This document shows, piece by piece, positions 19,084 through 59,660 of a DNA stretch of 64,000 nucleotides. The notes below the pieces were generated by a model, which worked only from the letters and a program-made list of their open reading frames with translations, was not told where the DNA came from and did no database searches. The stretch's first letter is position 1. Each line of letters starts with the position of its first letter. The DNA is from an uncultured Gemmatimonadaceae bacterium (GTDB lineage: Bacteria > Gemmatimonadota > Gemmatimonadetes > Gemmatimonadales > Gemmatimonadaceae), in assembly GCA_963790305.1 (NCBI GenBank), contig CAWBOC010000005.1, positions 640,001 through 704,000 on the forward strand, written 5' to 3'. The position numbers and the translations under genes are program-made.

Positions 19084-22000
19084 AAATCGTCAAGGATTCA
19101 CTCAAATATCCGGCGGTCACGCTGACGCTGATCGCGATGGTCGTCATCGCGGGCGCGCTGTCGCTGCTCAAGATGCCGCGTCGCGAGGACCCGCAGATCA
19201 CGATTCGTGCGGGCCTGGTGATGGCCTTCTATCCGGGCGCCACCGCCGAGCAGGTAGAGGCGCAGGTCACGCGCAAGATCGAGGAGCGGCTCTTCCGCTT
19301 CTCCGAGGTGAAGAAACGGAAGACCTTCTCCACCAGCCGCGATGGCATTGTCATCGTGCAGCTCGAGCTCGAGGACTGGGTCACGGACCCGGACCTGTTC
19401 TGGTCGAAGCTGCGGCACGACATGAACGAGCTGAAGAGTCGTGAGCTGCCGCAGGAAGTACAGGGAGTCACGGTCGATGGTGACTTCGGCGACACGGTTG
19501 CCCAGCTCATCGCCGTCTCCGGCGAGCGCTACGGCTACCGGGAGCTGAAGGACTACGTTGGCCGGATCGAGGACGCGCTGCGCGCCATTCCCGCCACCTC
19601 GAAGATCAAGCGGTATGGGGAGCAGCGAGAGCAGATCGAGGTCGCGACATCGTTGTCGCGGTTGTCACAGTATTCGCGTCACGCCGACGCAGATCATCTC
19701 GGCGCTTCGGCAACAGAACCTCGTTGAGTACGCGGGCAGCTTCGAGACGGAAGCGGGCGACGTGCCGCTCCAGACGTCGGGCCTGTTCCAGACGGAGGAT
19801 CAGCTGCGAGCGCGTGATGGTGGACGTGTCGAAGACGACGGGGCAGCCGGTGTATCTCGGTGACTTCACCGACGTGCGCCGCCGCTACGAGGATCCCTCG
19901 TCGTTCGTGCGCGTCGACGGCAAAGCCGCCGTCATGCTGTCGGTGGAGATGCAGGAAGGGAACAACATCGTGGAGTTCGGCGCGGCGGTGGAGGAAGCGC
20001 TCGCCGAAGTGAAGCGGACCTTCCCGCCGGATCTCAAGGTCACCCTGGTGGCGGATCAGCCGCGCGTCGTCGAGGAGCGGATCAGTCACTTCAATCGCGA
20101 GTTCGCGATCGCGATCGTGGCGGTCGTGCTCGTCACGATGCTGTTGCTGCCCTGGCGCGTGGCGACGATTGCCGCCGTCGCCATCCCGGTCACGATCGCG
20201 TGCACGTTCGCAGCGCTGGACTGGGTTGGCGTGGAGCTGCACCAGGTGTCGATCGCGGCGCTGATCGTCGTGCTCGGCATGGTCGTCGATGACGCCATCG
20301 TCATCGCCGACAACTACGTGGAGCTGCTCGATCATGGGTTGACGCGCGCCGAAGCGGCGTGGCGCAGCTCGAGCGACCTCGCGGCGCCGGTGCTCGCGGC
20401 AACGCTGACGATCATCGCATCGTTCGTCCCGCTCGCGTGGCTCTCCGGAACAACGGGTGAGTTCATTCGCGCACTGCCAATCACGGTTGCCGTGTCGCTC
20501 CTCTGCTCCTTCGTCGTGGCGATGGTGCTGACGCCGATCCTGGCGTACACCTTCATCAAGACGGGGCTACGGGCGCACCAGCCTGAGGGATACACACCGC
20601 ACGTGCAGCAGCCCCCGCGCACCTGGCTCGGGCGCGTTCGCGCCTTCAGGCCGCTCGACGCGATGGAGCGTGCCTACGACTGGGCGATTCGCATCGCCAT
20701 GCCGCGCAAGCGGCTGACGCTGTTGTCCGGCGTCGCGGCGTTTTTCGCCGGTCTCGTCATGTTGAGCTTCGTCGCCGACCAGTTCTTCCCGTTGGCTGAG
20801 CGCGACCAGTTCGTGATCGACGTCTGGATGAAAGAGGGCACGCGCATTGGTGCCACCGATGCCGCCGTTCGCAGCATCGAGGCGGAGCTCGAGCGCACCC
20901 CGAACGTGACCGAGGTTGCGTCGATCATCGGGGCCGGCGCGCCGCGGTTCTACTATGCGATCTCGCCCGAGATCTCGACGCCGTCGTACGCGCAGATCGT
21001 CGTCAACACGACGTCGCCGGAGATCACGCCGGAGATCGTGAAGGAGCTCAGTCACAAGCTGCCGGCTCTCGCGCCCGAAGCGCACATCATGGTGAAGGAG
21101 CTGCAGCAGGGCGCCACGTCGGCGGCACCCGTCGAAATCCGCATCACCAGCGAGGACATGGGAACGCTCAAGAAGGTGGGCGCCCAGATCCAGACGCTAT
21201 TCTACAACACGCCCGGCACGCGGGACATCACGACCGACTTCCGGAACGACACCTACCGCCTGGCGGTGAAGGTCAATCAGGAAGCGGCCAGTCGTGTCGG
21301 CCTGACGAGCGCCGGTATTTCACGGTTGCTCGCGGGTGGCTTCGAGGGGGCTCCCGTCTCGACGTTCTGGGAAGGAAGCCGCGCCGTGGACATCACCCTT
21401 CGCCTGGGCGAGAGCGAGCGGCAGCGCTTCGACGACATCTCCGCGGCGTACATCACGTCCGAGGTCACGGGCGCCCGCGTTCCGCTCAGTCAGGTGGCGA
21501 CGCTGACGCCGGTGTGGGAGCCAAGCCGGATCGTGCACCGCAACGGGTTGCGCACACTCACGGTTCGCACGTTCGCGCAGGAGGGATTCCTCCCGTCGCA
21601 GGTGCTGGCGACGATCCGCGCCACGACCGATACGCTCACGCTGCCCGAAGGCACGTCGATCGAATACGGTGGCGAGTACGAGAACCAGACGGACACGCAG
21701 GGCGAGATGTACATCGCCCTGATGATAAGCCTTGTCATGATCTTCCTGATTCTGCTGCTGCAGTTCCGGAACATTCGTATTCCGCTGGTCGTGATGGTCT
21801 CCATTCCGCTGGCCGTCGTCGGCGCAGCACTCGGCCTGTTGATGACCGGCAATCCGTTCAGCTTCACCGCGTTCCTCGGAGTGATCGGGCTCATGGGGCT
21901 CGTCGTCCGAAACGCGATCATCCTGGTGGACTACATGAATGAGCAGCTCGCGAAGGGGGTCGAAGTGGAGCAGGCGGCGATCGATGCGGGCCGTCGCCGG

Positions 22001-23614
22001 CTGCGGCCGATCTTCCTGACGACGATGGCCGCCGCCGCCGGCGTGCTGCCGATGATTCTGTCGGGCTCGAGCATGTGGTCGCCGCTCGCCAGCGTGCTGG
22101 CAATGGGACTCATTGTGTCGATGATTTTCACGCTGATCGTGGTGCCCGTGTTGTACGTCGTCGTCGAGGGCCGCCGTCACAAGAAGCCCGCGGCGCCGGC
22201 CCCGGTGAAGGCACCGCTATGGGAAGAGGAAGAAGAGGACGAGAACGCGGCGGTATTCACCGGCGCCCATCCGATGGTCAAGGTGACCCCCGTGCTCGCG
22301 ATCGCGTTAGGGATCGCCTTCTCGGTCTCGACTGCCTCGGCGCAGGAAGCGACCGGTCGCCTGACGCTGGAGGATGCCGTCGCGATTGCGCTTCAAAAGA
22401 ACAGCGGTGTGCGCGTGGCGCGCAGCCGCGCCGAGGAAGCCATGTATCGCACGCAGCAGTCGACACGCTCGATGCTGCCGTCGATCAGCGCGACCTTTCA
22501 GACGACGCAAAGCACCGCCAACGAGCGACTGGAGTTCGCGCGGGGCTCGCTGGGAGTGTTCGACGGGCAGCCGATTCCCAACGAGAACATCGCGATCGAG
22601 CAGGGCGGCAGCAGCTCGAGATACGGGACGCTGACGATCGCACAGCCTATCACGTCGCTGCTGAAGATTCGGGCGGCGCGTGACGTGGCCAAGGCGGAGG
22701 AGCGCTCGTTCACCGCTGAGGCTCGGAAGGCTGAGCTCGACGTCGCACTGGCCGTGGAGAAGGTGTACTACGGCCTGCTCGTGGCGCAGCATCGCCGGCA
22801 GGCGGCGGCGCTGCGAGTTGACGTCACCGAGGACGCGCTTCGTCACCGTGTCCGCAGCGTCGCGAACGGCACGCAGCTCCCCGTCGCGGAGCTCGAGGGA
22901 CGCACCGCGGCGCTGGATGCCCGGCAGAGCTTGCAGGCGGCCGAGGACGAGATTGCCGACTACGCGGCCACGCTCTCCGAGCTGTTAGGCGTGCCGGTCG
23001 ATCCCGCCGTGCAGTTGGTGACACCGGCGCGCGCGAACCTGGCCGACTCGGTCACGGTCGACGGCCTGATCGGACGGGCGATGGTAGACAACCCGGACGT
23101 GGCGGCGGCAGGTGAGATGGTGCGGCAGGCGGAAGGAGGGCTGCGAGCGAAGCGCGCGGCGTATATCCCCGACGTCGCGGTATATGGCACCGAGATGTAT
23201 CAGACAGCGGTGCCGTTGCTGGCCAAGAACAATTTCATGTTCGGGATCAAGGCCGAGTGGACGGTATTCGACTTCGGCAAGCGTGAGGCGAGCGTCGCCG
23301 AGTTGCGCGCGACAAAGCGAACGGCCGAGGAAAATCTGCAGCGCGTGCGGCGCGAGATCGCGACGGACATCGAGCAGGGACAGCGAAAGGTCGAGCGGGC
23401 TCGGCGCAGCGCAGTGCTGGCGGGAGAAGTTTTGACCCTTCGGCGCGAAGCGGCGCGGATCAAGATCGACCAGGTGGCGAGTGGGCTGATACTGGCCACC
23501 GAGGGTGCGGAGGCGGAGGCGGCTGTCGCGAGCGCGCAGGCCGATGCGCTCGCCGCGGAAGTTGGATACCGATTGGCGGTGGCTGAGCTCAAGAGAGCGG
23601 CTGGAATGCGGTAA
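19080..23614 (+). CDS. RND permease (AcrB/AcrD/AcrF family) fused to C-terminal TolC domain; frameshifts ~19672 and ~19808
   Basis: YPGATAEQVEAQVT, LGMVVDDAIV, GLVVRNAII, RLRPIFLTT, then in-frame OMF domain starting LTLEDAVAIALQKN. Confidence 0.9.
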
Positions 23615-52294: not shown

Positions 52295-52360
52295 GGTCGT
52301 CGAGGTGATCGACGTGAAGTCACCTCGATGGCCTCGATTACCTCGACTACCTCGACCACC
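52295..52360. repeat. Inverted 9-mer (ACCTCGAnn) repeat hairpin
   Basis: TCGAGGT/ACCTCGA units directly after the kinase stop. Confidence 0.75.
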
Positions 52361-55300
52361 TATTGCTCCTTCACCCTCAACGCCTCCAGCCTCCTGCGGA
52401 CTTCCGCGACGCGCGGCTGCAGATCGGGATCGGCATCCTTCCACAGGGTGATGAACTGCGTGTAGTACTCGGCTGCCTTTCCCGCGTCACCTCGCTCCTC
52501 GTACAGTGCGCCGAGGCGGCGCAGCGTGGACGCGAGCCATGTGCCGTCGAGGTGGCGCGTCAGCCTGCCCCAGGTGGGCGTGTGGATGTAGCGCTCGTAC
52601 GCCGCGATCGCGGAGTCAGGCATCTGGCCCATCTCGAACGCCATGCCTAACAGGGGGTCCAGGCAAATGCTGCAGTCGCTCGCCGGACCGTCAGGGTAGC
52701 TGTCGCCCAGCCGTAGCTCAGTAATCGCATCAGTGGGACGATGCTCGGCCAACGCAATGAGGCCGAGCATCGTACGGCGGCCGGGCTCTCGCATCCGGCG
52801 CATCGCGCTGTCCGTCACCTCGGCGTCGTACCGGGCGAGGGTCGCACGTGCCTCTTGCGGCCGTCCGGCAATGGCATTGAGCGCGGCCACATCGAAGTAC
52901 GGCCGGCGCTCGAGATCGATCGAGGTCAGCGGCGTGCGCGCCAGCGCAGCATCGAGCCGCCGGATGCCAGCCGCTGGCTGCTCGCGCAGCCAGATATCGT
53001 CCGCGGCGACCATCAGCGAATCATAGAGCGGAAGCGGCGGAACGCCGCGTGCCTCGAGGAGCCTCTGCTGCTCCGCCCGCAGCTGCATGCTCTCGCGCAG
53101 GCGCCCCCGCACCGCGGCGAGATCCGACTGGATGCTCACCGCCGCGATGCGGGCTTGAGCGTCGCTCGACGACCGCTCCTCCCTAATGAGAAGGAGGAGG
53201 GAATCGGACTTGCCCTCCTGATACAGCCGGGGGATGACGTTGAGCGAGAGACCTGGAATGGTTGGAAAGCGGCGTCGCATTTCCGTGGCGACGGAGTCCT
53301 GCGCGAGAAGCTTGCCCTGATCGAACAAGGTCGACTGGAGGTTCCCGTAGGCGATGGACGTGGCCTGTTCCGAGGCAATCGCTCGCCGATAGGCGTCTTC
53401 CGCCTTCTCGAACTCCCGCTTGCTGCGATAAATGTTGCCCAGGTTGTTCAACGCCGCGCTGTTCGTCGGGTCGATCTCGAGCAGCTGCTCGTAGGCGGCA
53501 GCGGCGCGCTGACGGTCGATGACGCGACCGGTCCCGTAGTACGAGCCCTCGGTGAGGAGCCGCTCGCGATCGGTGAGGCGGTCTCGAAACCGAAATGCGC
53601 GATTGAGCGCGGTGTCGGCGGAGCCTAACGGACCGATGCCGCTGTTGCGATGGGCCACGCCGAGCTTGCGGTACGCCATCGCGAACGCGGTGTCGAGCTG
53701 CACCGCCTGCTGCAGGAGCGAGATCGCGCGGGGATAGTCGCCCTCGACATCCATCGCGCGCGCGCCGGCCACGTACTTGCGGAGCGCGTCGAGGGACGGG
53801 GTCGTCACCTGCGCCAGCGGCGGCGCAGCGCGTACGGTCTTCAGCGACTCCCCGATCCGGCCGCGCAGCTCGCGTGAGAGCTCATCGAGGGCAGGAATGA
53901 GATCGCGCGGCGATTCGGCCGTCTCGCGAAAGGCCGCCAGCTCATCACCGCTCTCGGCGGCGCTCAGACGGAGCACGATGAGGAAGCCATCCCCCACGGC
54001 GCTGATCTCGCCGTGCAGCACCGCCTCGATTCCTTCGCGGACGGCGACCTCGCGCGCGAGCTGAAGATCCACTCGCGCGTTCGGCGGTCGCTCCATTCGG
54101 CGCAGCGCGGCCGTGACCGCGCTCATCGAAACGACTGACACCGCCTTCGACTGTCCCAGCTCGGTGCGCACGGCCTCCGACGCAATGTGCCCCAGCGAGG
54201 AGTCGGCACCCGTCACGCGAAAGTCGGCGACGAGAATGCGGTCATCATCGCTCAGCTTGCCGGCGGCCAGCAGCGATCCCGCCGGTCCGATCCCCATGGC
54301 GCGTAACGCCATGAACACCCCGACGACGAGCACGAACGCAGCGAGCGTATATGCGCCCCCGAGGGCCGCGCGCCGCCAGGTGAAGTGATGACCCGCCTTC
54401 ACCGCGATGGCCTCGACCCCCTTCGGCGCTGCGAGACCGCCGCTCGTCGTCATCCTCGGCGTCATCGTCGCCAGCCGGCGCGACACGCGATGCATGTACG
54501 CCGTGGCGATGATCACGGGCAGCCCGAGCGCCATGACGATCAACGCGCCAGTGAACACCCAGTCGGGCAATCCGATTCCTGTGACGGCGACTCGCGCGAG
54601 TATCGCGACGATCGCAAACGCGATCACGTACGCGACGAGCGCGCCCTTCCACGCGCCGGGGCGGCCGAGCAGCATCGCGGGCATCGCCGCCAGCGTGTCG
54701 CTCGTCGGCGTCGCATCGAGTGTCCGGCCAACCTCGGCCGCCGACGCCGGGCGGTGACCTGGATCCTTCTCGAGCAGGCGCATGACGAGATCGCTCAGCG
54801 AGGCTGGCGCGTCCAGTCGAAGCTCACCGACCGGACGTGGGGCCTCGGTGAGATGCGCCGCGAGCATTCGCTGCGGCGACCGATCGTGGAAGGGCGTGTG
54901 GCCGGCGAGCAGCTCATAGGCCAGACATCCCAGCGCGTACAGGTCGGCGCGATGATCAATGGTGGGGTCGCCGGCGGCTTGTTCGGGCGCCATGTACGCC
55001 GGTGTCCCCAACGACATCCCGATCTGCGTGAGCGTGCCACCGGGCGCCTCACGAGAGGCCGAGAGGGCCTTCGCGATGCCGAAGTCGGTGACGACCGCGG
55101 TGCCGCCGGAGAGCAGCACGTTGTCGGGTTTGATGTCGCGGTGCACGACGCCGCGCCCGTGCGCGAACTCCAGGGCGCGCGCGACGTCTCTCAGAATGCT
55201 CATGACGTCCGCGAGCGGCAGCGCGCCATCGGCGTCGAGCCGCGCGCGGAGCGATTCCCCTTCCACGAACGGCATGGTGTACCAGGGAATTCCATTCGTG

Positions 55301-55551
55301 TCGCCAGCGGACAACACCGGAACGATGTTCGCCTGCTGCAGAGAAGCGGCGACCTGAATCTCCCGCTCGAACCGCTCGGCGTTGATGCCCGCGGCGAGCT
55401 CGCCGGCCAGCACCTTCACCACGACGCGTCGCCGCAGCCGGTTCTCCATCGCCAGGAACACCCGCGACATCCCCCCACCGCCGAGCTCGCGCTCGATGAG
55501 GTAGGCGGTGCCGAGAGAGGACTGAAGCTGGGTTGCGAAGTCGGAGGGCAC
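52360..55551 (-). CDS. Hanks-type Ser/Thr protein kinase with TM region and TPR repeats
   Basis: LGGGGMSRV, VVVK, HRDIKPDN, DFG, GTPAYMAPE, TPR C-terminus (W.DADP.LQP). Confidence 0.95.
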   Translation of the reverse strand: MPSDFATQLQSSLGTAYLIERELGGGGMSRVFLAMENRLRRRVVVKVLAGELAAGINAERFEREIQVAASLQQANIVPVLSAGDTNGIPWYTMPFVEGESLRARLDADGALPLADVMSILRDVARALEFAHGRGVVHRDIKPDNVLLSGGTAVVTDFGIAKALSASREAPGGTLTQIGMSLGTPAYMAPEQAAGDPTIDHRADLYALGCLAYELLAGHTPFHDRSPQRMLAAHLTEAPRPVGELRLDAPASLSDLVMRLLEKDPGHRPASAAEVGRTLDATPTSDTLAAMPAMLLGRPGAWKGALVAYVIAFAIVAILARVAVTGIGLPDWVFTGALIVMALGLPVIIATAYMHRVSRRLATMTPRMTTSGGLAAPKGVEAIAVKAGHHFTWRRAALGGAYTLAAFVLVVGVFMALRAMGIGPAGSLLAAGKLSDDDRILVADFRVTGADSSLGHIASEAVRTELGQSKAVSVVSMSAVTAALRRMERPPNARVDLQLAREVAVREGIEAVLHGEISAVGDGFLIVLRLSAAESGDELAAFRETAESPRDLIPALDELSRELRGRIGESLKTVRAAPPLAQVTTPSLDALRKYVAGARAMDVEGDYPRAISLLQQAVQLDTAFAMAYRKLGVAHRNSGIGPLGSADTALNRAFRFRDRLTDRERLLTEGSYYGTGRVIDRQRAAAAYEQLLEIDPTNSAALNNLGNIYRSKREFEKAEDAYRRAIASEQATSIAYGNLQSTLFDQGKLLAQDSVATEMRRRFPTIPGLSLNVIPRLYQEGKSDSLLLLIREERSSSDAQARIAAVSIQSDLAAVRGRLRESMQLRAEQQRLLEARGVPPLPLYDSLMVAADDIWLREQPAAGIRRLDAALARTPLTSIDLERRPYFDVAALNAIAGRPQEARATLARYDAEVTDSAMRRMREPGRRTMLGLIALAEHRPTDAITELRLGDSYPDGPASDCSICLDPLLGMAFEMGQMPDSAIAAYERYIHTPTWGRLTRHLDGTWLASTLRRLGALYEERGDAGKAAEYYTQFITLWKDADPDLQPRVAEVRRRLEALRVKEQ

Positions 55552-55626: not shown

Positions 55627-57216
55627 GTGGAAGACTTCGCGGCGCTGCTCGCCCTCATCGGGATCGTCATCGTCGTCTCCTCGCTGGTCTCCGGGGCGGT
55701 GGAGCGCACTGGGCTGCCACAGGTCGCGATCTTCCTCGCCCTTGGTGCCGGGCTCGGCCCATGGGGATTGGGTCTCGTCAATGTCAGCCTCGATTCGCCG
55801 ACATTGCGTGTCATTGCGGTGCTGGCGCTCGTCCTCGTGTTGTTCAGCGACGCGATTTCCGCCGACACGGGCGCGTTGCGAAAACAGCGCGGGCTCGCCC
55901 TCCTCGTGCTCGGCCCCGGTACACTGATCGTCGCGGCGCTCATTGCCGGCGCAGCCCATCTGCTTCTCTCGTTGAGCTGGGCCCACGCGGCAATCCTGGG
56001 TGCCGCGCTCGCATCGACCGATCCGGTGCTGTTGCGCACGGTACTTCGGCATCAGCGACTCCCGGAATCCACGCGGCTCGCGCTACGCATGGAAAGCGGG
56101 ATGAACGACGCAGTGCTGCTGCCCATCGTCGTCATCGCGATGCATTTCGCACCGCTCCCACCGGTCGCGATGGAGAGCAGCCTCGCACGCAGCATGGTGG
56201 GTCTGTTCGTGCTCGGACCGCTCATCGGAGGGTTCGTTGGGTGGCTCGGCATCATCGCGCTCGTTCGCGTCCGCGATCGCATCGGGGTGCGTCGCGACTA
56301 CGAATCGCTGTACGCGCTCGGCATCGCGCTGACCGCGTTCGCGCTCGCTGAGCGCGTTGGAGGCAGCGGCTTTCTGGCGGCGTTCGCGGCGGGGCTGGTG
56401 ATCGCCGTGCAGGACCTCGAGCTGTGCGACTGCTTTCTCGAGTACGGCGAAGCGACCGCGGAGATGTTCCTGCTGTTGACGTTCGTCGCCTTCGGCGCCT
56501 CGCTGTTGTGGACGGGCCTCGACGCGCTGGATGGACGCACCCTCGCATTCGCGGGGTTCGCGTTGATCGTCCGTACGGCGACGCTCTATCCGGTGCTCGC
56601 GCGCGCGGGTCTCGATGCGCGAAATCGCCGCCTCATCGCGTGGCTTGGTCCGCGAGGGCTGAGCTCGCTTCTTCTCGTGCTCCTGCCGGTGTTCGCCGGG
56701 ATGCCGGGTGCGGCCGGCCTCTTCACGATCACCTGTCTGGTCGTCCTGCTGTCGGTGATCGTGCATGGAAGCGGCATCGCGATCTGGCTCAGGCGCGATA
56801 CGAGGGAGAAACGAGGAGGGCGGAATGAGGACGCTCGGGGCAAAGAAGCTCCCGTGCCGGCGGTGTCATCCGGCGTCGCCGACGCTACGCCCATCACCAT
56901 CGATGAGCTTCGCCGGCGGCTCGAGCACGGCGACACCGTGCACATCATCGATGCGCGCGCCGACCGCAACTGGGAGCAGGACGATCGCGTGGCACGCGGG
57001 GCGATCCGGCTCTCACCTAACGATGCGGTGCGAACGGCGAGGGAGCTCGGCCTCGACCGTCACGGGTCGCTGGTGGTGTACTGTGCCTGACCCGACGAAG
57101 CGACGAGCGCCCGTGTGGCGCGCGAGCTGATAGCGGCGGGCTGGGCGGACGTACGCCCCCTGGTTGGGGGGTGGCGCGCGTGGCTCGATGCGGGACTTCC
57201 CACTGATCCCAAGTAA
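55627..57216 (+). CDS. CPA1/NhaP-type cation:proton antiporter fused to rhodanese domain; in-frame TGA (57088-57090) probably selenocysteine
   Basis: LFSDA, ASTDPV, ESGMND, GPRGLSS; IIDAR..ARGAI..LVVYCA*PDEATSARVARELIAAGWADVRPLVGGWRAWLDAGLP. Confidence 0.85.
57104..57124 (+). promoter_or_regulatory. Candidate bacterial SECIS hairpin
   Basis: GCGCC-CGTGT-GGCGC; loop starts 21 nt after UGA with G at 2nd loop position. Confidence 0.6.
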
Positions 57217-57222
57217 TCCCGA

Positions 57223-57286
57223 TTGACATTGTCGGGATTGCTGCCTAGCATCCCGCGTTCGCGCTAGTTGAAATCGATTCTCAACT
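57223..57286 (+). promoter_or_regulatory. sigma-70 promoter and Fur-box-like palindrome
   Basis: TTGACA-17-TAGCAT; AGTTGAAATCGATTCTCAACT (57266-57286). Confidence 0.7.
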
Positions 57287-57293
57287 GTCCACC

Positions 57294-59660
57294 ATGCTCC
57301 GCTCTACCGTCATCGCGTTGGCCTGCGCCTTGGCCGCCTCCCCCGCCGCTGCCCAGCAGGCGCTCACCGCCAGCCTTCCGTCCATCGCGAGCGCCGACAC
57401 CACAAGGGTCTACCGCTTCGACATCCCGGCCCAGCCGCTCGGTGACGCGCTCGCCGACTTCGCACGGCAGACCGGCCTCGAGGTCGAGCTATCGGATCCG
57501 ACCGCCAATTCGGTTCAGGCCACCGCCGTCAGTGGCTCGCTCACCGCGCCCGCGGCGCTTCGCGCGCTGCTCGCCGAAACCGGATTCGACGCGCGGTTCG
57601 AGAACGCCGAATCGGTGCTCGTTATGCGCCGACCGTCGAGCGACGCCGCGCCGCGGGAGCTGGCCCGGGTCGTCGTCACCGCCGATGCGGCCCGCGGTGC
57701 GAGATACACCGCCCGCCGGAGTGCGACGGCCACACGGACCGACGCCGAGATTCGCGACGTGCCGCAGGCGATCACGGTACTCGGTCGCGACCTGATCGAC
57801 GACCAGGCGATGCGAGGCATGGCGGACGTCGTGCGCTATGTTCCCGGAATCACGATGGGGCAGGGGGAGGGACACCGCGATGCGCCGACGATTCGCGGCA
57901 ACAGCACCACCGCGGATTTCTTCGCTGATGGCGTTCGCGACGATGCCCAGTACTTCCGCGACCTCTACAACATCGACCGCGTGGAGGCCTTGAAGGGGCC
58001 GAACGCGATGGTGTTCGGGCGGGGCGGCGGTGGCGGCGTGATCAATCGGGTGACGAAGGAGGCGACGTGGACGCCCACGCGTGCGTTCACTCTTGCCGGC
58101 GGCTCGTTCGAGCACCGCCGCGCCACGCTCGATGTCGGTGATGGGTTTGGCCGAAGCTTCGCCGCGCGGCTCAACGGCATGATCGAGGATTCACGTCAGT
58201 TCCGCAATGCGACGGGACTGGAGCGTCATGGCGTAAATCCAACGGCGACGATGCTCGCCGGGAATACGCTCGTGAAGGTCGGGTACGAGTACTTCGCCGA
58301 TCGCCGCACGGTGAATCGAGGCATCCCGTCATTCCGCGGAGCACCATCCAACGCTCCGATCGAGACGTTCTTCGGCGACCCGAACGCCAGCCGCTCCCGG
58401 CTCGTTATGCATGGGGGCAGCGCGATGGTCGAGCGGACGTGGGGGACCATCACGCTCCGAAATCGCAGTCGCCTCGTACGCTACGACAAGTTCTACCAGA
58501 ACGTCTTTCCCGGCGCGGTGAACGAGGCCGGCACCGACGTCAGTCTCTCCGCCTACAACAACGCGACCGATCGGCGAAGCCTCTTCAATCAAACCGACCT
58601 GGTGTACGCCTTCGGCACTGGGCGCGTGCGACAGACATTCCTCGCCGGCGTCGAGCTCAGCCACCAGCGGTCGGACAACTACCGCACGACCGGGCTCTTC
58701 GACGGAACGGCGACGTCGATGCTGGTGCCGTTCGCATCGCCCACCGTATCTCCGACGATCGAGTACGTGCAGAGGCCGGCGGATGCGAACAATCGCGTCA
58801 ACGCGGACGTCGTGGCCTTCTACGCGCAGAACCAGGTGTCGCTCGGGTCGCATTGGCAGGCGATCATCGGAGCGCGCTACGATCGCTTCGACCTGAGCTT
58901 CCACGACTATCGGGGCGGAGAAGATCTCACGCGTCTCGACGCGATGGTCTCGCCTCGTGTCGGTCTCGTGTTCAAGCCGGTCGAGCCCGTGTCGCTCTAC
59001 GGATCGTACAGCGTGTCGTATCTTCCCGGGTCGGGCGACCAGTTCGCGTCGCTCACTCCCACGACTCATGCGCTCGAGCCGGAGGGCTTTACCAATCGCG
59101 AGGTCGGGCTCAAGTGGGACCTGCGCCCCGTACTCGCGCTGACAGCCGCGTGGTATCGCCTCGATCGCACGAATACCGCGGCGCCCGATCCCAACAGCAC
59201 GACGCGACTGGTCCAGACGGGGCGCCAGCGCGGCACCGGATACGAGCTCGCTCTCGCCGGCGACATCGTCGGAGCATGGCAGATCGCAGCGGGCTACGCG
59301 TCGCAGAAAGCGACGATCCTGAGCAAGACGTCAGCCGCCGAGGCAGGTGCGACGGTCCCGCTCGTTCCGCGTGAGACATTCTCGCTCTGGAACCGATATC
59401 AGGTCGTTCAACGCCTGGGTGTCGGCCTCGGCGTCATCCATCAGTCGCGAATGTTCGCCGCGATCGACAACACGGTCACGTTGCCCGGTTTCACGCGGCT
59501 CGACGCGGCCGCCTTCGTGACGCTCACCCCGTCCATGCGCGCGCAGCTCAACGTCGAGAACGTGCTCAACGAGCGGTATTACCCGACATCGCACGGGAAC
59601 AACAACATCGGTCCCGGTGCGCCGCGGACGCTGCTGTTCTCGTTGGCTCTTACCCCTTAG
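57294..59660 (+). CDS. TonB-dependent siderophore receptor with N-terminal STN signalling domain
   Basis: FDIPAQPLGDALADFARQTG; ATRTD..DVPQ; RVEALKGP; NVENVLNERYY; GAPRT. Confidence 0.93.
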   Translation: MLRSTVIALACALAASPAAAQQALTASLPSIASADTTRVYRFDIPAQPLGDALADFARQTGLEVELSDPTANSVQATAVSGSLTAPAALRALLAETGFDARFENAESVLVMRRPSSDAAPRELARVVVTADAARGARYTARRSATATRTDAEIRDVPQAITVLGRDLIDDQAMRGMADVVRYVPGITMGQGEGHRDAPTIRGNSTTADFFADGVRDDAQYFRDLYNIDRVEALKGPNAMVFGRGGGGGVINRVTKEATWTPTRAFTLAGGSFEHRRATLDVGDGFGRSFAARLNGMIEDSRQFRNATGLERHGVNPTATMLAGNTLVKVGYEYFADRRTVNRGIPSFRGAPSNAPIETFFGDPNASRSRLVMHGGSAMVERTWGTITLRNRSRLVRYDKFYQNVFPGAVNEAGTDVSLSAYNNATDRRSLFNQTDLVYAFGTGRVRQTFLAGVELSHQRSDNYRTTGLFDGTATSMLVPFASPTVSPTIEYVQRPADANNRVNADVVAFYAQNQVSLGSHWQAIIGARYDRFDLSFHDYRGGEDLTRLDAMVSPRVGLVFKPVEPVSLYGSYSVSYLPGSGDQFASLTPTTHALEPEGFTNREVGLKWDLRPVLALTAAWYRLDRTNTAAPDPNSTTRLVQTGRQRGTGYELALAGDIVGAWQIAAGYASQKATILSKTSAAEAGATVPLVPRETFSLWNRYQVVQRLGVGLGVIHQSRMFAAIDNTVTLPGFTRLDAAAFVTLTPSMRAQLNVENVLNERYYPTSHGNNNIGPGAPRTLLFSLALTP

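Follow-up and report, generated by a model that had tools for sequence, protein, structure and literature searches.

A cation:proton antiporter–rhodanese fusion from an uncultured Gemmatimonadaceae bacterium with a UGA codon predicted to specify selenocysteine

Rhodanese domains in which selenocysteine (Sec, U) stands two residues after a cysteine have been catalogued among bacterial selenoproteins. This CxU type is listed as 'form 3, CxU' in a review of 2026 (PMC13188914) and as 'COG0607 form 2, CxU' in a review of 2022 (PMC9312934); in the portions of text available to us, both credit the type to Zhang and Gladyshev 2005 and note that no function is known for most predicted selenoproteins. 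The membrane transport selenoproteins named in the available portion of PMC13188914 are those of mercuric transport, a P-type ATPase, YeeE/YedE, the Sao proteins and an SO_0444-type efflux protein. The words 'antiporter' and 'exchanger' have no occurrence in the available portions of either review, and no paper on a selenocysteine-containing antiporter–rhodanese fusion was found in the literature, judged by titles. Here we analyse a gene of this kind on the forward strand of a 64,000-nucleotide stretch of DNA (the window; positions 640,001 to 704,000 of CAWBOC010000005.1, contig 5 of assembly GCA_963790305.1, 4.3 Mb, 66% G+C) from an uncultured Gemmatimonadaceae bacterium. Judged by comparison of its relatives, the apparent stop codon in the antiporter–rhodanese gene is almost certainly read as Sec, and the gene belongs to a widespread family of predicted selenoproteins that is systematically truncated in annotation. 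The predicted antiporter fusion is a new architecture of the already catalogued CxU rhodanese selenoprotein kind.

The nearest curated family is NCBIfam NF041203 (rhodanese_LYCAU), which according to the part of its record available is likewise a predicted selenoprotein, with the same [LV]-Y-C-A-U motif and with Sec two residues past Cys in the rhodanese active-site loop. It was the best curated match of the domain (93.9 bits with U entered as C, profile positions 17–126 of 126), and V-Y-C-A-U at residues 484–488 is a LYCAU-type motif, the type being taken from the name of the family and not from its members. The NF041203 model, however, is that of a protein of 126 positions; here the domain forms the C-terminal end of an antiporter with 13 helices, and its score lies below the cut-off. 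The statement in the first-pass annotation of the window that rhodanese-like selenoproteins are known is thus borne out by this family and by the two reviews, as far as their available portions go, and the antiporter fusion is unlisted there.

For the membrane part, the closest solved relatives are PaNhaP (4cz8) and MjNhaP1 (4czb), which have the same fold, with PF00999 over residues 17–389, although identity is merely 20–23% and no solved relative has a rhodanese tail. KefC, SLC9C1 and SOS1, all of them Foldseek matches, likewise have a cytoplasmic domain C-terminal to the transporter core. This is an analogy and not membership: neither the KTN/RCK domain of KefC nor the cyclic-nucleotide-binding domain of SLC9C1 was found in the Pfam search of the antiporter–rhodanese protein, which gave PF00999 and PF00581 only, and the KefB model NF002973 scored 15.4 bits against a cut-off of 804. 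In DedA–rhodanese proteins (PF09335 + PF00581) a membrane protein again carries the domain, with a YC[AS]CPNE loop and a shared VRPLVGG motif, but the membrane partner differs and the 23 proteins compared are Cys forms. They were the next-best matches covering the whole rhodanese region in a word-index search (E = 2.5e-14 to 1.2e-7; 37–46% identity).

The open reading frame (ORF) caller closed the frame from the GTG at 55627 at its sole in-frame TGA, which lies in the context TAC TGT GCC TGA, that is Y485, C486, A487 and the predicted U488 (more widely, L-V-V-Y-C-A-U-P-D-E). Past the TGA the same frame holds 41 more codons, PDEATSARVARELIAAGWADVRPLVGGWRAWLDAGLPTDPK, up to the TAA, and a sigma-70-like promoter site (TTGACA, 17 nt, TAGCAT) lies just 3' of it at 57223–57251. 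The first-pass annotation had placed the TGA in the active-site loop of a rhodanese fold and had proposed that the continued frame completes the rhodanese C-terminus and ends before the promoter. Every coordinate of this description holds, and the Pfam Rhodanese match (PF00581; 36.6 bits, cut-off 22.2, profile positions 2–101 of 102), which is obtained only with read-through, spans the TGA. At the other end of the protein, the N-terminus VEDFAALLALIG is aligned with the M, V or L starts of the orthologues. The entire gene is found in a single frame in 67 of 80 related loci, with TGA as the only in-frame stop, or without any in the two Cys forms described below. We consider it very probable that the gene is a single ORF for a 529-residue membrane selenoprotein made of antiporter, linker and rhodanese domain, with U488 specified by UGA (Table 1).

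The state of this codon was compared at two levels. The order-level comparison comprised 41 genomes of the same order, the source genome included (these tallies also include one unpublished genome, G015, which has no orthologue). TGA was found at the same codon in 9 of the 41, namely the source genome and eight others whose full or partial orthologues have exactly one in-frame TGA: four of the same genus (80–88% identity), two of the same family and two of another family (~60%). In all nine the context is Y-C-A-*-x-[DE]-E-A-T-S, followed by 41–52 conserved codons; in a further genome (G007) the contig end cuts the gene before the TGA site. The species-level scan, with one genome per species and the alignment of the nine orthologues as query, gave 287 relatives, the best 80 of which were analysed. 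Among these 80 the codon at the U488 site is TGA in 76 and Cys in 2, one locus being cut by a contig end and one aberrant. TGA-form loci are spread over about six phyla (taxa as labelled in the database); most are from Gemmatimonadota, and the others include Eisenbacteria, Binatia, Thermoanaerobaculia and Bryobacteraceae (the last two being Acidobacteriota lines), a metagenome-assembled genome (MAG) labelled 'delta proteobacterium' and a cultured carrier, Thermosporothrix hazakensis ATCC BAA-1881. The two Cys-form loci have TGC (L122, a Gammaproteobacteria MAG) and TGT (L138, a Manganitrophaceae MAG). MAGs labelled Gemmatimonadaceae are the nearest public relatives of the window. For alignment-wide counts 77 TGA-form sequences were used; most of them display the motif Y-C-[AT]-U, and the Cys486 codon is TGT in 64 and TGC in 13.

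Proteins spanning the site were also sought among 1.8 billion cluster representatives, exhaustively and without a profile. Twelve representatives that run through the site were compared, with Cys there in nine, Thr in one (YCATPRE) and frameshifted junk in two; loops of the Cys-form fusions include FCSCPDD, TCTCPAEE, WCTCPRE, FCACPND and YCTCPYD. In the six aligned DedA–rhodanese homologues, Cys occupies the TGA column in every case and the loop Y-C-x-C-P-x-E is invariant. Alternation between Cys and TGA at this codon, which the first-pass annotation had named as a mark of Sec, was therefore seen among loci, cluster representatives and DedA–rhodanese proteins alike. It had also expected the downstream frame to be conserved in orthologues, and the 77 TGA forms agree with purifying selection: pN/pS, uncorrected, amounts to 0.35 over codons +1 to +36 and again to 0.35 over +12 to +36, as against 0.51 over the 36 codons that precede the TGA. 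The value of 0.35 beyond the TGA argues that the tail is kept as protein. As for the direction of change between Sec and Cys, at least about three changes are needed on the tree, which is unrooted and has the Cys forms on long branches; polarity was therefore given up as a question for these data.

Database annotation follows the stop codon. The gene call stops at the TGA in each of the 43 antiporter homologues, of which one is the window's own and 42 are from the databases. None covers more than 68% of the C-terminal region, and the names given, where there are any, are NhaP-type, sodium/hydrogen or cation:proton antiporter; truncation by automated annotation had been foreseen in the first-pass annotation.

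Contigs of four soil metagenome runs (85% likeness) list no alternative letter at 57088–57090. One of them is identical across 56971–57104, and the only differences listed near the UGA concern position 57078 and the loop base 57114. A sequencing error for TGC or TGT had been named beforehand as a possible refutation; neither triplet occurs at the codon among the contigs of the four runs. As a separate observation, the depth of these contigs peaks at the bin 57083–57138 (27.8, 24.8, 4.2 and 27, against 19 or less elsewhere), and loose contig ends over this bin show other upstream contexts, e.g. ...TACTGCACT before the TGA. This suggests that a cassette of UGA and hairpin is common to other rhodanese genes or organisms. 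Another side observation concerns genome G017, where contig 68 (9903–10298) has a distant rhodanese match with 31% identity to residues 392–526. It contains a single in-frame TGA, its open frame is only 148 residues long, and it may represent a CxU rhodanese selenoprotein that stands alone or has another fusion partner.

In the bacterial pathway, UGA is decoded as Sec by SelB with Sec-tRNA(Sec), and SelB is recruited by a hairpin. Such a bacterial Sec insertion sequence (SECIS) is a stem–loop shortly after the UGA with G or U in the apical loop. The hairpin GCGCC-CGUGU-GGCGC, pointed out in the first-pass annotation as fitting this geometry, was recovered with its loop starting 21 nt past the UGA and with G at loop position 2. 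Its 5-bp upper stem (57107–57111 with 57117–57121) starts 16 nt past the UGA and stands on an A.G mismatch and lower pairs C-G and N-N; the loop CGUGU occupies 57112–57116. The hairpin is present in both the minimum-energy and the centroid fold.

Its conservation at that distance was analysed in the 77 TGA-form sequences. The loop is CGKGY in all of them (CGUGU 40, CGGGU 32, CGUGC 3, CGGGC 2), 87.4% of cells are paired and two-sided changes are found in 3 of the 7 pairs (26 cells). Covariation scores 0.130, whereas shuffles average 0.063 and in 500 trials never reached the observed value; when the 3' partner was slid by 1–3 columns, pairing fell to 16–59%. Pair 34–44 is GC in 58 sequences, AU in 15 and GU in 2, the AU pairs being produced by paired Ala-to-Thr and Ala-to-Val changes, and pair 33–45 has one change from C-G to U-A by two synonymous substitutions. 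Covariation also links the third bases of Thr+5 and Arg+11 (G/C 17, C/G 11, A/A 45, other 4). Stem codons are frozen (Ser AGC 76/77, Ala GCC 61/61, Val GTG 72/72, Ala GCG 58/60), with a synonymous entropy of 0–0.2 bits, versus 1.2–1.8 bits (3–4 codons) for the same amino acids nearby. At the two Cys-form loci similar peptides are coded and the hairpin is missing. The alignment thus indicates that the hairpin is constrained as RNA, in agreement with the bacterial SECIS geometry originally suggested for it.

Table 1. Coordinates, in the window, of the predicted selenoprotein gene and its parts and of frame breaks in the assembly
Feature	Position	Strand	Basis or remark
Whole coding sequence	55627..57216	+	GTG start, 529 codons including one UGA (predicted Sec), TAA stop
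Antiporter membrane domain (residues 17-389), NhaP/CPA1-type	55675..56793	+	Pfam PF00999
Basic, disordered linker (residues 390-424) after last membrane helix	56794..56898	+	Sequence WLRRDTREKRGGRNEDARGK; pLDDT
Rhodanese domain (residues 425-521), whole only with TGA read-through	56899..57189	+	Pfam PF00581; NF041203
Cys486 codon (TGT), first position of C-x-U	57082..57084	+	Cys in 30/30 full-length sequences
UGA predicted to be read as selenocysteine (U488)	57088..57090	+	TGA in 77/77 Sec-form sequences; Cys in homologues
SECIS-like hairpin	57104..57124	+	Pairing, covariation, frozen synonymous sites in 77 sequences
Predicted true stop codon TAA	57214..57216	+	Orthologues end 41-52 codons past TGA (TAA, TAG or TGA)
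Pfam-confirmed frame breaks	~3261, 19650-19808, 24884, 30208, 33990, 35925, 36032, 36716, 37078		Complementary halves of Pfam families
Frame-break candidate	~41313		

The membrane domain matches Na_H_Exchanger well above the cut-off (PF00999; 148.8 bits, E = 2.6e-43, cut-off 26.2). The AlphaFold2 model, built from a 30-sequence alignment, consists of a helical membrane core, the linker and the rhodanese domain, with a mean predicted local distance difference test score (pLDDT) of 83.2 and a predicted TM-score (pTM) of 0.79. With this model, Foldseek ranked PaNhaP first (TM-score 0.74 on target, E = 3.3e-11) and MjNhaP1 second, followed by SLC9C1, SOS1 and KefC. Identity as a cation:proton antiporter of the CPA1 type, proposed from the outset, is thus upheld by the Pfam score and by the NhaP-like fold. 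Among the 30 sequences almost no variation is seen at T131-D132 and N160-D161 and none at R316 and R343; we take these to be the ion-binding or transport residues of NhaP-type CPA1 exchangers, and for this reason the transporter looks functional. The protein missed the NCBIfam equivalog cut-offs of NF003716, the family of NhaP2/CvrA-like K+/H+ antiporters (161.9 against 355 bits), of its siblings (136 against 309 and 96.7 against 471) and of TIGR00831 a_cpa1 (54.5 against 279.6), so that ion specificity is not fixed by family match. Within the linker, pLDDT is below 50 at residues 399–417, and by the positive-inside rule the linker would lie on the cytoplasmic side. It was also observed that C267-D268-C269 (window 56425–56433) forms a C-D-C-F motif in a membrane helix, unchanged in all 30 fusion proteins. 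This motif was considered as a fusion-specific partner of the Sec and rejected: CxC (CGC, CEC, CPC, CTC) is present in 4 of 7 non-fused paralogues, so that it characterizes the subfamily rather than the fusion.

The rhodanese domain is modelled with a pLDDT of 85–92 as a beta strand (481–485), the active-site loop (486–491) and a helix (492–503) around the predicted Sec. In the best alignment with a PDB sequence, an ungapped one with domain 1 of 6mxv (20.0 bits), U488 coincides with the cysteine in its C-X5-S loop; in gapped alignments of lower score it is C486 that takes the place of the canonical Cys (6mxv domain 2, 10.3 bits; YnjE domain 3, 5.1 bits). Since C486 and U488 are both invariant, an Se–S couple of the two is plausible.

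The first-pass annotation had suggested that a Sec-rhodanese sensor could gate ion transport by redox or sulfur/selenium status, and the following mechanism is proposed along these lines. SelB with Sec-tRNA(Sec) would bind the hairpin, which starts 13–16 nt past the UGA inside the coding sequence, and would decode the UGA. The rhodanese tail would be cytoplasmic and would serve as a regulatory module like the C-terminal domains of other CPA exchangers. There the very reactive Sec, together with Cys486 two residues off, would capture an oxidant, an electrophile, or else a persulfide or perselenide, for example with formation of an Se–S bond, and the change at Sec would switch K+/Na+ versus H+ exchange on or off. 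We regard the conjunction of a cytoplasmic regulatory module, Sec-based capture and switched exchange as possible, at somewhat less than an even chance. Known gating in comparable proteins involves glutathione and its adducts (KefC), cyclic nucleotide and voltage (SLC9C1) or an auto-inhibitory tail (SOS1), with the electrophile/thiol logic of KefC coming closest in function. The fuller proposal, that the CxU tail senses such compounds and gates K+/Na+ versus H+ exchange in a KefC-like role in soil Gemmatimonadota and that the portable CxU/CxC module, borne also by DedA proteins, may serve more generally for selenium-dependent control of ion fluxes across membranes, is a tentative one and rather doubtful as a whole.

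The rhodanese may alternatively be a membrane-anchored sulfur or selenium transferase, or a soft-metal binder acting via C-x-U, that is only loosely coupled to exchange; as a transferase it would handle or pass on a sulfur or selenium species beside the transporter. Sec is usually found at catalytic positions, and the ungapped alignment sets U488 on the loop Cys of a solved rhodanese; against this, the active-site loop P-D-E-A-T is acidic, whereas the loops of thiosulfate sulfurtransferases are basic and bind thiosulfate through their basic residues. ChrE, a chromate-resistance rhodanese, is matched weakly (24.8 bits, cut-off 120), which is compatible with oxyanion or metal handling, but no sulfur or selenium relay partner is conserved nearby. 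Fusion of CxC/CxU rhodanese domains to DedA, a very different membrane protein, suggests that what matters may be tethering to the membrane and not the control of a single transporter; the C-terminal domains of SLC9C1, SOS1 and KefC, in contrast, are regulatory. We judge a catalytic or metal-binding rhodanese of this kind conceivable and, on balance, unlikely.

Decoding of the UGA depends on the Sec machinery, which the first-pass annotation had expected in the source genome. The tRNA-Sec gene (73.1 bits, cut-off 47; anticodon TCA) lies on contig 6 at 123309–123401 and adjoins selD (359 bits; near 122.3 kb of the same contig), which has an in-frame TGA of its own in a C-A-G-U-A-A-K site. The selB gene was found on contig 6 near 49.6 kb (261 bits) and selA on contig 9 near 116.9 kb (264 + 233 bits). 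All four genes were thus found, and in the source assembly each of the three protein genes has one frame switch, so that each occupies two frames. In related genomes selA is one open frame in 31 (near-full profile) and cut or split at contig ends in 3; among the related genomes compared, two adjoining frames were seen in the source genome only.

These splits are the starting point of a second alternative, in which the family is one of selenoproteins but the pathway for Sec is in decay in the source strain; the UGA would then terminate translation and leave a 487-residue antiporter with a crippled rhodanese stump. Decay would agree with the observation that no other related genome compared has selA in two adjoining frames. 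With a background of ~0.15 breaks per kb, 0.6–0.7 breaks are expected in the ~4.3 kb of selA, selB and selD together, and the three found exceed this number (Poisson P ~ 0.03). However, frame breaks are also abundant in ordinary genes. A rough codon-score heuristic flagged 551 places in the genome where abutting frames on the same strand switch, including 12 in the window, where split Pfam families confirm at least 10 single-base frame breaks; the families concerned are luciferase-like, AcrB, sigma-54 activator, TetR, DrrA and two ABC-2 permeases. The breaks are clumped (e.g. four within 2.3 kb), and no obvious homopolymer pattern was found in the local sequence at them. Moreover, the antiporter–rhodanese gene, its TGA, the hairpin and the downstream frame are intact, and selD keeps its own Sec codon. 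Because ordinary genes are broken too, the breaks in selA, selB and selD are most likely assembly errors, and gene-level readings of this frame-break-rich assembly need care. As three breaks are more than expected, real decay of the pathway in the strain retains a small part of the probability and is improbable.

Co-occurrence of the codon with the machinery was analysed in other genomes. Within the order, all nine TGA-bearing genomes have selA and tRNA-Sec, which is weak evidence because 34–35 of the 41 genomes hold the machinery anyway. Six genomes of the order lack selA at E 1e-30 and none of them has the TGA codon: five have no orthologue, and the sixth (G007, whose orthologue is cut by the contig end before the site) is 71% complete and has tRNA-Sec. 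In other phyla, tRNA-Sec scored above cut-off in three of three TGA-form genomes and selA was found in two of the three; T. hazakensis ATCC BAA-1881 combines the TGA form with both tRNA-Sec and selA. Neither tRNA-Sec above cut-off nor selA was found in the two Cys-form genomes, one of which is a 1.7-Mb partial MAG.

Besides the frame switches in selA, selB and selD and their excess over background, several results weigh against the interpretation of the gene as encoding a selenoprotein with a Sec-based switch: (i) the folding energy of the hairpin is unexceptional for G+C-rich sequence (z = −0.68; 43 of 200 shuffles as good or better), so that the case for the hairpin rests on its conservation, (ii) an Rfam scan of 56900–57300 (E up to 10) returned no SECIS family and two chance-level matches, (iii) no RNA run with the gene was found among the indexed runs, none of which contains more than 0.19 of the words, (iv) the NF041203 cut-off of 115 bits was missed, the score in a six-frame genome search being 90.5 bits, (v) selA was not found in one TGA-form genome (G045), (vi) the weaker alignments favour C486 as the canonical Cys and the active-site loop is acidic, as described above, and (vii) no neighbour gene is generally conserved among 81 loci, so that there is no operon clue to function.

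Some of these points would suit a third alternative, in which the TGA acts as a genuine stop, or read-through occurs without Sec, and the 41 downstream codons are kept for another reason. Sec insertion is here a prediction from sequence, the antiporter homologues in the databases and the window's own ORF all end at the TGA, and the energy of the hairpin is unremarkable. The downstream frame nevertheless resembles protein and supplies the rest of a known fold, Cys is the only alternative seen at the codon apart from one Thr, and the hairpin covaries and is absent from Cys forms; in addition, the TGA-form genomes have tRNA-Sec, whereas the two Cys-form genomes have none above cut-off. We therefore consider a true stop, or read-through other than by Sec insertion, very unlikely. 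An error of sequencing or assembly, or a one-off nonsense pseudogene, might be suspected from the many indel-type errors of the source assembly and is refuted, to near certainty, by the same TGA in 76 other loci from independent assemblies and in the soil-run contigs. Reading of the UGA as Sec accordingly remains the preferred interpretation.

The surroundings of the gene vary among the 81 loci. In the window, a 1063-residue ORF on the reverse strand (52360–55551) is divergent from the antiporter gene; by eye it has an N-terminal Ser/Thr kinase, then a membrane segment and repeats resembling tetratricopeptide repeats (TPR). The upstream Ser/Thr kinase recurs in 4 of the 81 loci, all of the same genus. 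An ORF of ~420 residues lies downstream in 21 loci, one copy (L064) being without any Pfam match, a MoxR ATPase recurs near 15 loci and a glyoxalase-type protein near 6. Elsewhere in the window, a 1262-residue frame (19808–23593) matches the AcrB/ACR_tran profile (positions 245–1020) and also has an outer-membrane efflux protein (OEP) domain; this frame may be a true fusion or the product of a stop lost in an error-prone assembly.

If the interpretation of the UGA as a Sec codon is true, a secondary ion transporter joins the short list of membrane transport selenoproteins. The annotation error would be a systematic one, in a family with 287 species-level relatives that are mostly soil Gemmatimonadota, and as homologues are truncated at the TGA, selenoproteome counts for soils would be too low. 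The fusion also leads us to propose a link between selenium or redox status and the homeostasis of pH and cations, and the cultured T. hazakensis ATCC BAA-1881 is a carrier in which this link would be testable.

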